From UHGV virus genome UHGV-0127437: a stretch of DNA of 51,462 nt; one strand, 5' to 3'. Origin of the DNA: a virus. The notes under the pieces are model-generated. The model was not told where the DNA came from, searched no databases, and saw only the letters and a list, made by a program, of their open reading frames with translations. Below, piece after piece: positions 32,664 to 37,399 of the stretch. Each line of letters starts with the position of its first letter. Position 1 is the first letter of the stretch. The position numbers and the translations under genes are program-made.

Positions 32664-32897
32664 TTAGTAAAACCAGTCGTCGGCGCTTTCCCAGGTCTCC
32701 TGAAGAATCTCCTCAATGCGCTGCTTGTCCCCTTTTTCACCCCCCAGAATACTCAGGCCATCAGCCCCGGCGCGGCGAATTGTAAGTTTGACCCCTTCAT
32801 AGTTCTGGCTGAGCCTGCGTAACAGTTCGGCTTCTAATGCTGGCACTGCGCCATCAGGAAGTTTCTTTGTTCGATCAATAGTTAACTCAACTTTCAT
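32664..32897 (-). CDS. dinI: DinI-family protein (SOS-regulated RecA modulator homolog)
   Basis: ORF from ATG at 32897 (MKVELTIDRTKKLPDGAVPALEAELLRRL...KQRIEEILQETWESADDWFY), C-terminal DinI signature; GGAGG RBS; LexA box immediately upstream. Confidence 0.8.
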   Translation of the reverse strand: MKVELTIDRTKKLPDGAVPALEAELLRRLSQNYEGVKLTIRRAGADGLSILGGEKGDKQRIEEILQETWESADDWFY

Positions 32898-32915
32898 AGT
32901 GGCCTCCATTGCGTA

Positions 32916-33004: not shown

Positions 33005-33030
33005 GTAAAAAAACCCGCCGAAGCGGGTTT
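33005..33030 (-). terminator. Rho-independent terminator
   Basis: Stem aaacccgc/gcgggttt with cgaa loop, U-run on minus strand; between upstream small ORFs and dinI promoter. Confidence 0.6.
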
Positions 33031-33173
33031 AATCATTAAGAGCATTTGCATCTGTGGCAGGTGAGGAGTTCATATTGTGCTCGCATTTAAGTCCCCTTAA
33101 ATGCGCAGAAGCCGCAATCGGGTGTTCAGTCCGACTGCGATTTAATTATTGCTGGTTGATTATTAAAAATCGA

Positions 33174-33437
33174 TCAACACTGATATGGAGGAATTTGGTA
33201 CCTTGCGATCGCGTCTTGAGGATTTTCAGGGAAAACACCATCTCGAGTTGCGATTAAGTATGTTGCCCCACCAAAAAAATGTCTAACAACAAAATAATCT
33301 TTCATAATCGGCGTTTGTGTCTGGTCTGAAGCAAGAGGCTCAGTTGGCAACTGAATTATGGACTCTCCGTTATAGTTCTCAAGTGTTGCAATCTTATATT
33401 TACGGACTTTATCGCAAGCTAAAAAATGAGTGCTCAC
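33174..33437 (-). CDS. Hypothetical protein
   Basis: 87-aa ORF, GTG start preceded by GGAGGAGGAG; coupled to upstream small ORF. Confidence 0.35.
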   Translation of the reverse strand: MSTHFLACDKVRKYKIATLENYNGESIIQLPTEPLASDQTQTPIMKDYFVVRHFFGGATYLIATRDGVFPENPQDAIARYQIPPYQC

Positions 33438-33664
33438 TTCTCCTCCTCCTGTTTTAAGTATACCGAATCGCTACCTTGAAGTAAGGTTATCGGTTGCTCG
33501 GAGGAAATCTTTACCCTCCACTGGGTAATTTCGAAAATGCTCTTGCTTCTTAGTGATGACAAACATGCTCTTGCAACCGTTTTACGTGATACTTGGACGG
33601 CAAGGCCAGTGTTAACCTTGCCTCGCTCATTCTGTGACTTTGCCGCACTGTTAAAATCACTCAT
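33434..33664 (-). CDS. Hypothetical protein
   Basis: 76-aa ORF, ATG start with GAGG RBS; stop overlaps start of next ORF. Confidence 0.35.
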   Translation of the reverse strand: MSDFNSAAKSQNERGKVNTGLAVQVSRKTVARACLSSLRSKSIFEITQWRVKISSEQPITLLQGSDSVYLKQEEEK

Positions 33665-33826
33665 TGGCTACCTCGCAATCGTTCAGTATACGTCCCAATA
33701 CAACCCTAGGTGTTTGTTTTGTCTAGAAACGAAACCCGTAGTAAACTTTATTAAGTTGCAAACAAAATTCACCGCCTTAATCTAAAAACTTAAAACCAAT
33801 TTAATTACAAAGGTTCATTACAGTAA

Positions 33827-34393
33827 CTATATGCTCAAGATAATAATATCACGCCCCAATAACACACTTACAATTGCGGGCCAATGACTAAAAATGAATA
33901 CAACCAAAGAGATGAGACATATTACAAAGATAATAATGCATAACCACTTCATTGAAAGGTATAATAACTCACCTCTTTTCACTCGCTTCCACTCTTTTTT
34001 TAATACATTATGGCTTGCCATGGTGAAATCATCGATATCTTCTTTTAAATCTGAAGAAGGTGTTCCAGAAGATACTTTAACATTAAGTAATTTAATGGCA
34101 TCTCTTAGAACAGTTTCTTCTCTTGAAGGTTTACTATGATTGAGCCTGAGATAAATTTCTGATTGAACTACTGTGATCCCTTTGTATGCAGATTTTCGTT
34201 CTTCATCTGAAACTTCCGAGTCTCTTCTCAATACATCATAAAATCCAAGCAGGTTTGAAAGAGCTTGCCTTAATTCAGAGATCCATGCCTGACGGAACTC
34301 AGATGTTTTTAGTTCCTTAGTAATAACAAGACTAATCATCGCGCCAATTGCGGCTAAAAATGCTATAATTACAGCAATGACAGGTTCATTCAC
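33827..34393 (-). CDS. Hypothetical membrane protein (N- and C-terminal TM helices), low-GC cargo
   Basis: 188-aa AT-rich ORF; hydrophobic termini flanking a charged central domain. Confidence 0.5.
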   Translation of the reverse strand: MNEPVIAVIIAFLAAIGAMISLVITKELKTSEFRQAWISELRQALSNLLGFYDVLRRDSEVSDEERKSAYKGITVVQSEIYLRLNHSKPSREETVLRDAIKLLNVKVSSGTPSSDLKEDIDDFTMASHNVLKKEWKRVKRGELLYLSMKWLCIIIFVICLISLVVFIFSHWPAIVSVLLGRDIIILSI

Positions 34394-34554
34394 TTTTCTT
34401 ACCCCTAAAATAATTAGCCTAAAAGCTCCTGAAATCAGAATATCTAATCTTACTGGATATAAATTTAAAGATAGACTTTAAAGCCAAACCTAGTATGTTA
34501 GAATAACCTTTTAACAAGAAGTTTGTCGACATTTTAACGTAACCGAGAAGTAAA

Positions 34555-35136
34555 ATGAACGCTAACTCACAGCCAACGCCAGATCAAGAAATCAAGATCG
34601 AGGTCATCCGCTGGCATCAAAAACTCCAGGAAATCACCTACATCGAAGCTGGTCAACACATGCGTGCTTTGAACCAACTGATGTGGCAGATTCCAAGTCT
34701 GGTAATCGCCATTAATGGTGGGCTCTGGTATGCTGCTACACTAGTTAATGAAGCCTCACTTTGGATGATTTTTGCTTTTTTAACAGTTTTCGACCTGCTC
34801 ACTATTTGCACGCTTTTTCGACTTAGGGTTCTGATAGGAAAAAAAATAACCAAACAAAATGATATTGAAGAACTATCGAAAAATAGCATACTTCAAGACC
34901 TTAGTAATAAATCCGGCATAATAATCTCACCTACCCCAGCTCCTAAAAAAGAGAGCAAGTTCATTGTAGTTGGATGCTGGACCATATGCTTATTGCTCTG
35001 CGCTATTATTAATTTTCATGGCTCATTTAATCCGTCGATATTTTCAAAACCTAGCGAAAACAATAAGTCCGAACAAAACACAACTCACCTCATCTGTGTT
35101 TCTAAGACAGCACCCACAAATGGAGAAATAAAATGA
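34555..35136 (+). CDS. Hypothetical polytopic membrane protein, low-GC cargo
   Basis: 193-aa ORF, ATG start; at least three hydrophobic helices; stop overlaps downstream methyltransferase start. Confidence 0.5.
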   Translation: MNANSQPTPDQEIKIEVIRWHQKLQEITYIEAGQHMRALNQLMWQIPSLVIAINGGLWYAATLVNEASLWMIFAFLTVFDLLTICTLFRLRVLIGKKITKQNDIEELSKNSILQDLSNKSGIIISPTPAPKKESKFIVVGCWTICLLLCAIINFHGSFNPSIFSKPSENNKSEQNTTHLICVSKTAPTNGEIK

Positions 35137-35738
35137 CCACATGGAAATTTTATGATGACAATGCCTTACGTTTATTTAATGACTATCAATCCCTAAATTT
35201 TAAAGATATATTTTCTGACGTTGAATCCTACTTCCTTGCTTCCCGCGGAGATGCTCTGGACGTAGGTGCTGGTTCTGGAAGGGATTCTGCTGCTTTATTT
35301 AAAATGGGCTACAATGTAACAGCTGTAGAGCCAAGCGATAACATGCGAAATCTTGCGGCCGAAAATCATAAGCACTGTGATATTACTTGGGTCAATGATT
35401 CATTGCCTGAACTAAGAAAGATCACTCAATCACTAAAGACCTTTGACCTTATAATTGTTAGTGCAGTCTGGATGCACCTAAATGAAAACCAGCAGGAGAG
35501 GTCGTTATTTACTCTATTCAATCTTCTATCCGCCAATGGAGTTATGATCATTACATTGCGATTAGGGCCAGCCGAACCCGATAGACAAATCAGTGTGATT
35601 TACACAGAAGATTTAATTGCTCTTTCAAAAAAATTAGGGCTAACGGTTGAATATATTAGCCCTGTCAATACGGATAGTTTTAATAGACCATCCGTTACTT
35701 GGCAAAAAGTGGTTTTATCTAAAAAAACCACTTCATAG
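35133..35738 (+). CDS. Class I SAM-dependent methyltransferase (substrate unknown)
   Basis: 201-aa ORF with motif I DVGAGSGRDSAAL and downstream acidic/hydrophobic motifs of Rossmann-fold MTases; no DPPY/NPPY DNA-MTase motif seen. Confidence 0.65.
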   Translation: MTTWKFYDDNALRLFNDYQSLNFKDIFSDVESYFLASRGDALDVGAGSGRDSAALFKMGYNVTAVEPSDNMRNLAAENHKHCDITWVNDSLPELRKITQSLKTFDLIIVSAVWMHLNENQQERSLFTLFNLLSANGVMIITLRLGPAEPDRQISVIYTEDLIALSKKLGLTVEYISPVNTDSFNRPSVTWQKVVLSKKTTS

Positions 35739-35744
35739 ATGCCA

Positions 35745-36989
35745 TTACTCACAAAGCCCATAACGTGATGAACAGACCTCGGTATTCAGGCTTGATTTGA
35801 CCAAGTCGTAGACTTTCCCCCCGCGACCTGTTTTGGCCCACTCCACAACTTCATCAACACTTGGCGAGTTCAGGTTTGCGCGAGGTCCATAGAACCCAGA
35901 CCAATCAATATGCTGCACCTCAGGTTCTAACCCATAGAGCTGCACATTTCTACCAAGGGGCAGGTCAAACGACTTCATCCAGCGCTGGTTTATCTCGCCA
36001 ACACTCATCCAGTGAACCCAGCGAGACGTTAGACGAACCTTCAGCTCCCACTCTTTGTGCTTCTCAATATGCTCCGGCCAGCGCGAAAATGTCTCAGCAA
36101 TTTCTTCTTTGTTACACAGCACGCAATTCATACAACCGACACGTGAGGCTCCCTGCGTGTAAAGCGGGTTTGGCGATATCCCGAAGTATTTGTGGAGCGC
36201 GAATACATCTGTGGCCGTCCACTGGTGAATGGGAAGGAAGTTATACAAAAAATCCGGGTCACGCTTGTCAGTGGAGAAGCGCTCATAGCTGGCTCTCTTT
36301 GATGACTCATCTGCCCGTACACCAGACCACTGGACGACCACGTCGCCATCATCCAGCATTGGTTGCAGAGCTTTATCAAAGGCGATCTGAATTTTGAGCT
36401 CATCGGTACAGAATCGGTCGCGAAGCATCGGAAATTTACCATGCAACAGTGCGCAGTCTAGAAAGCTATTTCCGCTTGGATGCATAACAGACAGAGCAGC
36501 ATCCAGCGCAGTTTCGAATTCAATTCCCCAACGCTCAGCAGTACGCAGCCAGGCCTGCCCAAACGCTGTATCGGAGCGGCCGAGTGAAGGCATAACAACA
36601 CCCCTATATGCCCCCATACGAATGGCCTGACGCTTAACCCAGTTCTTCTGGATGTATCCTCGGCGGCGTTCAAAATCAACCTCGGTATATATCCGCTTAA
36701 CAACCTGAACTGGCGCGCATCCAATCTGTTCATGGATAGTTTTTGCGAACTGTACGGTAAGCTCGTGTTCATTATCTGTATCAGCCATAACAGCCTGAAC
36801 TCTACCGCCAAACAATGCATGGGCAACTGCCAGAGTGGCCGTGCTGTCCTTTCCTGCTGAATAATTGACGACGATTTTGTGATCATCAGGGATGCGGAAT
36901 TCAGTGAGGTAGCGATTATAGGCCAATCCAATTTCGCGAATTTTTTCGCTGATGTCGGTCGGTGCAATAATCATTGCTGCGTTGCTCAT
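35745..36989 (-). CDS. Phosphoadenosine phosphosulfate (PAPS) reductase-family PP-loop protein (IbrA-like phage protein)
   Basis: 414-aa ORF with PP-loop motif NYSAGKDST and extended C-terminal domain; resembles phage/prophage PAPS reductase-like proteins as recalled. Confidence 0.7.
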   Translation of the reverse strand: MSNAAMIIAPTDISEKIREIGLAYNRYLTEFRIPDDHKIVVNYSAGKDSTATLAVAHALFGGRVQAVMADTDNEHELTVQFAKTIHEQIGCAPVQVVKRIYTEVDFERRRGYIQKNWVKRQAIRMGAYRGVVMPSLGRSDTAFGQAWLRTAERWGIEFETALDAALSVMHPSGNSFLDCALLHGKFPMLRDRFCTDELKIQIAFDKALQPMLDDGDVVVQWSGVRADESSKRASYERFSTDKRDPDFLYNFLPIHQWTATDVFALHKYFGISPNPLYTQGASRVGCMNCVLCNKEEIAETFSRWPEHIEKHKEWELKVRLTSRWVHWMSVGEINQRWMKSFDLPLGRNVQLYGLEPEVQHIDWSGFYGPRANLNSPSVDEVVEWAKTGRGGKVYDLVKSSLNTEVCSSRYGLCE

Positions 36990-37399
36990 AGCTTCACTCC
37001 ATGACGTAGTTGGGCGGTAAACTCTTTAGCCACCGTTGAATATGGATGTTCATGACAATCAAGGACTTTCAAACTGTCAGCAAACATCTCCACACCCTGA
37101 GCCCGAACTTCTGCCAGGTACGCGTCGGTTGCCGGGGTGATCATAGCTGCCACCGCGTCATCGATATGACAATCATCAATACCGCAAAAATTCGCCTCTT
37201 CACGGTTCGCGTTCAGGTGGCGAATGATCTTTTTGGCAGCCTTAAGCCCCGCATTCTCGGCAGCCAGCGCCGCGAGCTTGGCTTCCGATTCGGCAAGTTT
37301 CTTACGCAAACCAGTTTCACAGGTATGCGCGCCGCTGCGCCCCCTCTCAAAGGAGAATCCGCAGTCACAATAAAAAACGTTGTCTTTCTCGGTGATCAT
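36986..37399 (-). CDS. Hypothetical protein with coiled-coil (Ead/Ea22-like)
   Basis: 137-aa ORF, ATG start; LAESEAKLAALAAENAGLKAA coiled-coil and Cys/His-containing ends. Confidence 0.4.
   Translation of the reverse strand: MITEKDNVFYCDCGFSFERGRSGAHTCETGLRKKLAESEAKLAALAAENAGLKAAKKIIRHLNANREEANFCGIDDCHIDDAVAAMITPATDAYLAEVRAQGVEMFADSLKVLDCHEHPYSTVAKEFTAQLRHGVKL

Follow-up and report, generated by a model that had tools for sequence, protein, structure and literature searches.

A low-GC cargo block of a Citrobacter koseri prophage: a probable split membrane-anchored methyltransferase that accompanies DNA phosphorothioation genes

The virus genome UHGV-0127437, 51,462 nucleotides long and called here the window, raises the question of what a membrane protein and a methyltransferase do together in the cargo of a phage. 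The two are encoded by adjacent low-GC genes, tm193 and mt201 (together, the pair), next to a PAPS-reductase family gene, PAPS414. A preliminary description, made from the letters alone, had assigned tm193 and mt201 to an acquired accessory system of five genes ending before PAPS414. The answer which we favour, with moderate confidence, is that the block is a mosaic of cargo, that its core tm193 + mt201 is a split membrane-anchored methyltransferase travelling with the machinery of DNA phosphorothioation (PT), and that the working unit is tm193 + mt201 + PAPS414 (34555-36989), with a role in sulfur chemistry. The three genes are:

34555-35136, plus strand: tm193, membrane protein of 193 amino acids
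35133-35738, plus strand: mt201, class I S-adenosylmethionine (SAM) methyltransferase of 201 amino acids
35745-36989, minus strand: PAPS414, PP-loop protein of the PAPS-reductase family, 414 amino acids

The best indication of how tm193 and mt201 are related comes from fused proteins. Polypeptides of 331-391 amino acids (P0369, P0401, P0403, P0412, P0439 and P0379) consist of an N-terminal tm193 domain and a C-terminal domain of the same methyltransferase family as mt201. Because both families occur fused in other organisms, comparison identifies tm193 and mt201 as the split form of one membrane-anchored methyltransferase. The coupling of the two genes through an ATGA overlap, as proposed earlier, was confirmed at 35133-35136, and this overlap suggests that their translation is coupled. 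A 4-nucleotide overlap was also found in phage phi458 and in Microvirgula; in Burkholderia the overlap is 13 nucleotides, and in Klebsiella aerogenes there is a gap of 14 nucleotides. Across the loci, the divergence of tm193 and that of mt201 from the window copies run in parallel.

The assignment of mt201 to the class I SAM methyltransferases stood up to profile searches (Pfam Methyltransf_25, 47.2 bits against a cut-off of 27, E = 3.8e-12). So did the statement that it lacks DNA methyltransferase motifs: in a pattern search of its 201 residues no [DNS]PP[YFW], PCQ or ENV motif was found, and by this measure mt201 does not belong to the DNA N6, N4 or C5 methyltransferases. The SAM-binding motifs of mt201 are intact. 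In the family alignment motif I (LDVGAGSGRD) and E66 were invariant, as were W113-M114-H115, R143, R151, D181, R185 and W190. Invariant positions outside the SAM site are rich in arginine and tryptophan (R50, W86, W113, H115, R143, R151, R185, W190). Relatives of mt201 occur in approximately 555 species, and 76 of the 80 best loci have no tm193 partner. In a neighbour-joining tree the pair-linked methyltransferases form a clade of their own, with the window copy inside it.

Members of the methyltransferase family were also observed in the company of nucleases. At L050:1683-3488 (minus strand) a 601-residue protein combines an mt201-family methyltransferase with an HNH_4 nuclease. In Marinobacter (L039, L060, L072, L090) an mt201-family gene directly follows, with an overlap or within approximately 10 nucleotides, the gene of a protein of about 1040 amino acids that has PLD nuclease, superfamily 2 (SF2) helicase and DUF3427 domains and in this is similar to the restriction enzyme SauUSI.

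The membrane partner matched no Pfam, NCBIfam, PHROG or PADLOC family. Its conserved motifs, seen in an alignment of homologues, are LEAGQHMRALNQLMWQIP and GGLWY. Homologues of tm193 fell into 66 clusters sharing contigs with mt201 homologues, and a profile search of 1.84 billion representative proteins yielded only 232 representative clusters of tm193-type proteins. In an AlphaFold 2 (AF2) model (pLDDT 77) a long N-terminal helix continues into a hairpin of two transmembrane (TM) helices, TM1 and TM2, and a third hydrophobic helix follows. One further fusion was recorded: P0364 (334 amino acids) carries an N-terminal RNase_T (DEDD) exonuclease and a C-terminal tm193-type domain. Since fusion heads sit at either end of the tm193 domain, both of its ends should be cytoplasmic, provided that both heads are. 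The fusions and the model together point to a topology in which TM1 and TM2 form a hairpin and the third hydrophobic helix does not span the membrane. The tm193-type anchor is thus a portable module that serves different enzymes, for which nucleic acids are the probable substrates.

Every pair locus first examined outside enterobacterial prophages adjoined genes of DNA phosphorothioation. In Microvirgula the pair is divergent from dndBCDE, in a Moraxellaceae metagenome-assembled genome the order dndB-C-D-E-tm193-type-methyltransferase is found within one low-GC island, in Methylotenera the pair adjoins, and is divergent from, sspB and sspC, and in Burkholderia it is followed by sspF-G-H. A metagenome scan with a tm193 profile added 40 loci; in metagenome loci the pair adjoins dndBCDE, sspBCD or sspFGH. 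SspD, DndB-E, SspB/C and SspF-H were confirmed in pair loci with PADLOC. When pair loci of at least 6 kb were considered, Dnd or Ssp genes were present within 10 kb in 17/29, and 7 more had a tail-to-tail PAPS-reductase gene, whereas PT genes were seen at only 2/76 loci of partnerless methyltransferases (Fisher p = 1e-16 when neighbours of either kind are counted, 4e-10 when only Dnd/Ssp genes are). With the pair loci grouped at 70% identity, a dndBCDE, sspBCD, sspFGH or PAPS-reductase neighbour was found for 19 of the 23 pair clusters, and in clusters without a neighbouring PAPS414-type gene Dnd or Ssp was nearby in 11/15, often in the same operon.

Different systems can stand beside pairs that share 70% identity or more: L018 has Ssp genes and L203 has Dnd genes; likewise, L190 has a PAPS414-type gene and L187/L188 have a PAPS reductase only 32% identical to PAPS414. 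As related pairs adjoin different systems, vertical co-inheritance with one cluster cannot explain the link to PT. In L218 the tm193 and methyltransferase domains are fused in one open reading frame (ORF); it overlaps a dndB/dpdB-like gene at that gene's stop codon, and facing it are HerA-like, DndD-like and DndC-like genes. These comparisons depict a small and mobile tm193/mt201 family that travels with dndBCDE, sspBCD, sspFGH and Dnd-like variants.

Some pair loci contained additional genes. Two ATPases recur beside the pair or the fusion, a DndD/PbeC-like ABC ATPase and one of the HerA/FtsK kind with about 500 amino acids (L203:5855-9417, L218:4440-8032, L050:3614-5071, L099:1-1932). The HerA/FtsK ATPase matches the C-terminus of SspH and also mad8 of the MADS system, so that with the mad2-like methyltransferase these pair loci contain two MADS-like components. 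At L193:421-2374 a helix-turn-helix (HTH) protein and a HipA-like kinase are encoded directly upstream of the pair, and at L194:8062-9916, in the same pair lineage, ORFs of similar size (193 and 422 amino acids) have the same position.

Enterobacterial prophages offer a simpler arrangement, in which the PT-related neighbour is PAPS414. The preliminary description had left the PAPS-reductase gene outside its unit; this boundary was not upheld, the comparative data making PAPS414 the most informative neighbour of the pair. PAPS414 contains a PP-loop and in profile searches showed domain-level similarity to SspD, BrxP and DndC. With PADLOC the SspD profile gave E = 1.3e-17, over residues 183-329 only, and DndC a domain-level match (E = 1.8e-8); identity to DndC in tblastn was 25-26%. 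In the window PAPS414 and mt201 are tail-to-tail, with 6 nucleotides between the stop codons. The pair was tail-to-tail with PAPS414 in all 16 further loci of the enterobacterial type (viral, genome and metagenome). Escherichia phage phi458, nine IMG/VR contigs and Enterobacter soli have tm193 and mt201 homologues with 56-62% identity and a PAPS reductase with 78-87% identity, and have no tm188, orf76 or orf87, the other genes of the window's block. The phi458 copy of PAPS414 is 84% identical and identically arranged; in the GenBank record of phi458 both the tm193 and the mt201 homologue are annotated as hypothetical proteins.

PAPS414 is common in prophages (74 IMG/VR loci). The pair is next to it in 17/74, always tail-to-tail and AT-rich, and copies of PAPS414 that are 85-92% identical occur with the window-type pair, with a 59%-identical allele of the pair, or with no pair. 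The GC content of the pair is 0.35-0.40 in backgrounds of approximately 0.50, and the pair was present in 29/5426 complete E. coli genomes. Because PAPS414 occurs with and without it, and because so few E. coli genomes have it, the pair is, on this comparative evidence, facultative cargo with a specific address. The suggestion that the genes are horizontally acquired accessory cargo was therefore borne out for the core pair, which is facultative, mobile and AT-rich. Taking into account that the pair travels with PT machinery and, in enterobacterial prophages, lies tail-to-tail with PAPS414, the working unit is most likely tm193 + mt201 + PAPS414, and PAPS414 is the likely functional partner of the tm193 + mt201 cassette.

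In other prophages the gene following PAPS414 was of a different kind. A P2/186-type replication gene A comes after the PAPS414-type gene, overlapping or abutting it in most cases (L122, L125, L150), and an MT-A70 methylase (L133) or a C5 methylase (L150:4986-6020) was also seen there. This suggests that PAPS414 belongs to a module of DNA modification and replication initiation.

For the purposes of this work the term PT-associated tm193 + methyltransferase cassette, which is not that of a named family, is used where a tm193-type gene immediately precedes a methyltransferase gene of the pair-linked clade, or is fused to it, and where a PAPS-reductase, Dnd or Ssp gene is no more than 10 kb away. 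The window conforms to this definition (overlapping genes at 34555-35738, PAPS414 6 nucleotides downstream, mt201 in the pair-linked clade). It was not filed as a Dnd or Ssp system, because DndB, DndD and DndE (tblastn, two queries each) and SspB and SspC were not found in the 51-kb window. Literature searches for a PT-linked membrane/methyltransferase module returned no description, and searches for the C. koseri locus tags no mention. A module of a membrane protein and a class I methyltransferase is not described in the Dnd/Ssp surveys (PMC10853773, PMC12914056) or in the SspFGH paper (PMC8092258), nor in the abstract of the DndI paper (PMC11662687). Of methyltransferases near PT genes, PMC12914056 says only that they may act independently.

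These observations can be combined into the following scheme. The cassette has the same orientation as the cI-like repressor gene and is opposite to the lytic operons; with this orientation it would be expressed in the lysogen. Judging from the fusions and the gene overlap, tm193 would tether the methyltransferase to the inner membrane, on its cytoplasmic side. The enzyme would methylate an anionic, probably sulfur- or nucleotide-containing substrate tied to the DNA sulfur chemistry of the PAPS-reductase, Dnd or Ssp proteins, and this methylation would modulate PT-based immunity, or counter-immunity, for the prophage. Such a substrate, PT sulfur included, is allowed by the small-nucleophile relatives of mt201, its invariant arginines and tryptophans, the HNH fusion and the coupling to the PLD-helicase-DUF3427 protein.

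Several points weigh against a working unit devoted to PT chemistry. PT genes were detected by tblastn with a small set of queries and only part of the matches were confirmed with PADLOC; flanks were 6 kb for the control loci and up to 10 kb for the pair loci; and the loci are not all independent. Five pair loci (the K. aerogenes prophage and four others) had no PT or PAPS gene in reach. With 57 of the 74 PAPS414 loci having no pair, obligate partnership of PAPS414 and the pair is ruled out. The window's lack of DndB, DndD, DndE, SspB and SspC matters here as well: PAPS-reductase proteins are not known to suffice for PT formation, a P-loop NTPase being treated as the second requirement (PMC12914056). 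The closest characterised relatives of mt201 (TehB, TPMT, UbiG) methylate small nucleophiles, and an enzyme acting on DNA has no obvious need for a membrane anchor. The clearest exception to the PT link is the K. aerogenes prophage (L100-L102), which also marks the site as a cargo hot spot; at its P-DUF1367 site NACHT, DUF6998/PDDEXK and HATPase_c_3 proteins were found together with a pair and no PAPS reductase.

A more specific version of the favoured scheme, in which the cassette is a membrane-anchored TehB/TPMT-like S-methyltransferase acting on the PT sulfur of DNA, or on released nuclease-resistant PT di- or oligonucleotides and thiophosphate, is doubtful. The arginine- and tryptophan-rich invariant residues, the HNH nuclease fusion and the RNase_T fusion of the anchor fit it without proving it. 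If it were true, the cassette would provide the only known modification of the DNA backbone with its first 'eraser' or disposal step, or with a PT-dependent weapon, and prophages would carry an S-methyltransferase with their own DndC-like sulfurtransferase to manipulate PT-based immunity.

The proximity to PT genes could also reflect nothing more than shared defence islands, if the pair were a stand-alone abortive-infection or exclusion module with tm193 as membrane-disrupting effector and the methyltransferase-like protein as sensor, for example of the SAM level or of a phage product. We consider this unlikely, although a real possibility. A domain found both with methyltransferases and, in P0364, on an RNase_T exonuclease has the pattern of an effector domain with varied enzymatic heads, the neighbours of the pair include toxin-antitoxin genes, NACHT, PDDEXK, Mokosh MkoA and integrases, and pairs without PT genes exist (K. 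aerogenes, L191, L193). On the other hand, PT systems are rare, being carried by 6.3% of gut genomes (PMC12914056), yet Dnd or Ssp genes were found in the 11/15 clusters mentioned above, that is, in those without a PAPS414-type neighbour; mt201 retains all invariant residues of a mostly partnerless, and so presumably catalytic, family; and the PADLOC models of known membrane effectors did not match tm193.

The small-nucleophile relatives raise a different alternative, namely that the pair is a tehAB-like cassette for lysogenic conversion or detoxification which methylates a toxic chalcogen, a thiol or a membrane-bound small molecule and has no link to DNA. The Pfam TehB domain was matched with 31.5 bits (cut-off 20.4), relatives of mt201 gave TPMT matches, and a sequence search of solved structures returned generic methyltransferases only, the best being small-molecule methyltransferases; the order of a membrane protein gene followed by a methyltransferase gene also resembles that of tehAB. 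Against this, mt201 is not a TehB equivalog (21.7-31.3 bits where the NCBIfam cut-offs are 218-303), tm193, with no Pfam or NCBIfam match, shows no link to TehA, and the specific PT and PAPS-reductase neighbourhood, the HNH fusion and the PLD-helicase-DUF3427 coupling would all be left unexplained. Detoxification is thus rather improbable.

The MT-A70 and C5 DNA methylases which in other prophages occupy the position after PAPS414 suggest, as do weak matches of mt201 to a PHROG 'tRNA methyltransferase' and to Pfam RrnaAD, that mt201 might be an unconventional DNA or RNA base methyltransferase acting against restriction. This is very improbable for a protein of 201 residues with neither a DPPY nor a PCQ/ENV motif and no target-recognition domain, which is membrane-anchored, is transcribed against the early genes of the phage and belongs to a family that is partnerless and chromosomal in hundreds of species.

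It remains to place the cassette in its surroundings. Identical copies of the 201-residue mt201 are encoded in many assemblies of Citrobacter koseri, including ATCC BAA-895 (CP000822.1), where the flanking genes agree with those of the window; the window is a lambdoid prophage of C. koseri ATCC BAA-895. The region is the early-right arm, read on the minus strand, with the order O, P, DUF1627, DUF977, orf137, PAPS reductase, AT-rich block, DinI, DUF1367, RusA, Q and lysis genes. The remaining features are:

32664-32909: DinI gene (Pfam), flanking the block
33174-33437, minus strand: orf87, 87 amino acids, GTG start, phrog_37071
33434-33664, minus strand: orf76, 76 amino acids, phrog_1105, probable decayed theta homologue
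33827-34393, minus strand: tm188, protein of 188 amino acids with two TM helices (2TM)
34394-34554, no strand: AT-rich spacer of 161 nucleotides between the divergent tm188 and tm193
36986-37399, minus strand: orf137, phrog_492

The flanking DinI and PAPS-reductase genes and the ORFs were present as previously described, including the 188-residue protein with hydrophobic helices near its ends. The abrupt drop in GC content was also confirmed: between approximately 33650 and 35750 the values are 0.32-0.43, compared with 0.50-0.58 on either side, with a sharp recovery at 35750. Low GC throughout held for the core; the segment of the small ORFs orf76 and orf87 is intermediate (0.41-0.43). These two ORFs are coupled, as had been stated, the GTG start of orf87 overlapping the stop codon of orf76 (GTGA); the start of the block, given as 33434, omitted its fifth gene, orf87.

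No direct repeats that would mark an insertion were found flanking the block, no tRNAs were found, and no RNA family reached the Rfam threshold; a sub-threshold rsmX-like match in the spacer between DinI and orf87 (33008-33109, minus strand, 28 bits against a gathering score of 56, E = 0.02) is probably due to chance. In the spacer at 34394-34554, earlier described as a divergent promoter region and kept in the Klebsiella version of the block, there is one sigma-70-like site per strand (plus strand 34477-34504, with extended -10; minus strand 34529-34500). Promoter-like sites were not in excess of chance (5 in a consensus scan, 7.9 in shuffled sequence), nor were terminator-like sites more frequent than in shuffled sequence. 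A megablast search with 33100-35800 against E. coli genomes and GenBank phages gave no match, and a search at the protein level found phi458 only. Upstream of PAPS414, orf137 overlaps its start by 4 nucleotides, and the two are probably translated together; orf137 is not conserved beside PAPS414 in other phages.

tm188 matched no Pfam, NCBIfam, PHROG or PADLOC family. Its hydrophobic helices are at residues 6-24 and 151-169, and the AF2 model (pLDDT 88) has the layout TM1, cytoplasmic four-helix bundle, TM2, with the family's invariant motifs KTSEFRQxWI and LKKEWKRVKRGE between the two TM helices and only weak fold matches, to the sensors NarQ and MCP chemoreceptor. The SLATT identity implied by a UniRef name was not reproduced, no SLATT family in Pfam-A or NCBIfam being matched by tm188 or by 27 homologues; a helical bundle between two TM helices, as in tm188, would agree with SLATT. 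One homologue, with 41% identity, was found by itself at the corresponding P/DUF977...DUF1367 site of a Kosakonia prophage, where an AAA_21+RloB pair adjoins it; another, with 30% identity, is likewise solitary on a Rhodanobacter chromosome. These contexts, and the lack of tm188 in phi458-type loci, rule it out as a part of the cassette. By its distribution tm188 is an independent single-gene moron, and it is a candidate exclusion or abortive-infection effector.

The small ORFs have a different history. orf76 matches phrog_1105, annotated as DNA polymerase III theta (E = 6e-14), and does not match PF06440; its intact Klebsiella counterpart is an 85-residue PF06440 protein (L105:8795-9052). The ends of orf76 align with the Klebsiella gene, and 1-nucleotide indels and a 39-nucleotide deletion shift the middle out of frame. 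orf76 was uncalled in 4/6 of the C. koseri loci shown, whereas orf87 was called in 6/6. The alignment suggests that orf76 is a decayed theta (HolE/Hot-like) gene and probably non-functional. orf87 is a conserved phage ORF that belongs to phrog_37071 (E = 2e-56), and its cluster has members in Kosakonia. By these matches the two are phage-type genes outside the low-GC cargo; the possibility, named at the outset as a refutation, that these are conserved core phage genes with known roles was realized in part, by orf76 and orf87.

The compositions and distributions indicate that the block is a mosaic of three unrelated pieces (pair, tm188, small ORFs) at a cargo hot spot of a lambdoid prophage. 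Two Klebsiella lambdoid prophages that differ in backbone contain the block PAPS414 / mt201 / tm193 / tm188 / theta with 81-92% identity, and this recurrence speaks for the idea that the stretch from 33434 (correctly, 33174) to 35738 is a single acquired accessory system of five ORFs. The idea is nevertheless hardly tenable, as no phi458-type or other pair locus, viral ones included, has tm188, orf76 or orf87, tm188 homologues occur alone elsewhere, orf76 appears to be a decayed theta gene and the GC content of the small ORFs is intermediate.

If the PT-linked reading of tm193, mt201 and PAPS414 is correct, it bears on a gap in an active field, for neither a membrane component nor an enzyme dependent on SAM figures in the PT papers cited (PMC10853773, PMC12914056, PMC8092258). 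Temperate phages commonly carry 'PAPS reductase' genes, which are classed as morons or auxiliary genes. The cassette is small and mobile, and in Beta-, Gamma- and Alphaproteobacteria it keeps company with Dnd, Ssp and phage PAPS-reductase genes; it is therefore a concrete candidate for an accessory step still missing, be it regulation, erasure, by-product disposal or an effector function. Three prophage genes, from C. koseri, Klebsiella or E. coli phi458, suffice to ask what the role of phage PAPS reductases is. The annotation also gains a putative split membrane-anchored enzyme, a probable decayed theta gene and a marker for prophage cargo hot spots.

Among the known systems close to the block are those of phosphorothioation (DndABCDE-FGH, SspABCD-E/FGH and, in BREX type 4, BrxP). 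The pair lies beside or inside their clusters in most non-prophage loci, and DndC, SspD and BrxP have the PP-loop/PAPS-reductase domain in common with PAPS414. It differs from them in that the window has none of DndB, DndD, DndE, SspB and SspC, and in that a membrane protein with a class I methyltransferase is no component in the Dnd/Ssp surveys. The preliminary description had recognised no defence system, and this was upheld by profile searches, PADLOC giving only a domain-level match to mad2 of MADS: it aligns mt201 with the 157 positions at the C-terminal end of the mad2 profile (E = 2e-17), and the HerA/FtsK ATPase beside several pair loci matches mad8. MADS, however, has eight genes, mad1-mad8; of the six proteins scanned (33174-36989) none matched a further mad profile, there is no mad protein that corresponds to tm193, and the block is not counted as MADS. 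With TehA/TehB the pair shares the order of membrane protein and class I methyltransferase and a Pfam TehB match above the cut-off; it differs in that mt201 is no TehB equivalog, in that tm193 has no Pfam or NCBIfam match, and in its context of mobile elements and PT systems, not a housekeeping operon. The likeness to morons of the lambdoid nin region is one of place, AT-rich cargo lying between P/DUF977 and DUF1367/NinB against the lytic operons, at a site where prophages of Kosakonia and K. aerogenes have AAA_21+RloB, NACHT and PDDEXK genes; the difference is that tm193, mt201 and tm188 are in no named moron or defence family. The place itself is of a familiar kind, a hot spot for prophage cargo; what occupies it is a hitherto undescribed accessory cassette of PT-type systems, a 2TM moron independent of the cassette, and the relic of a gene.

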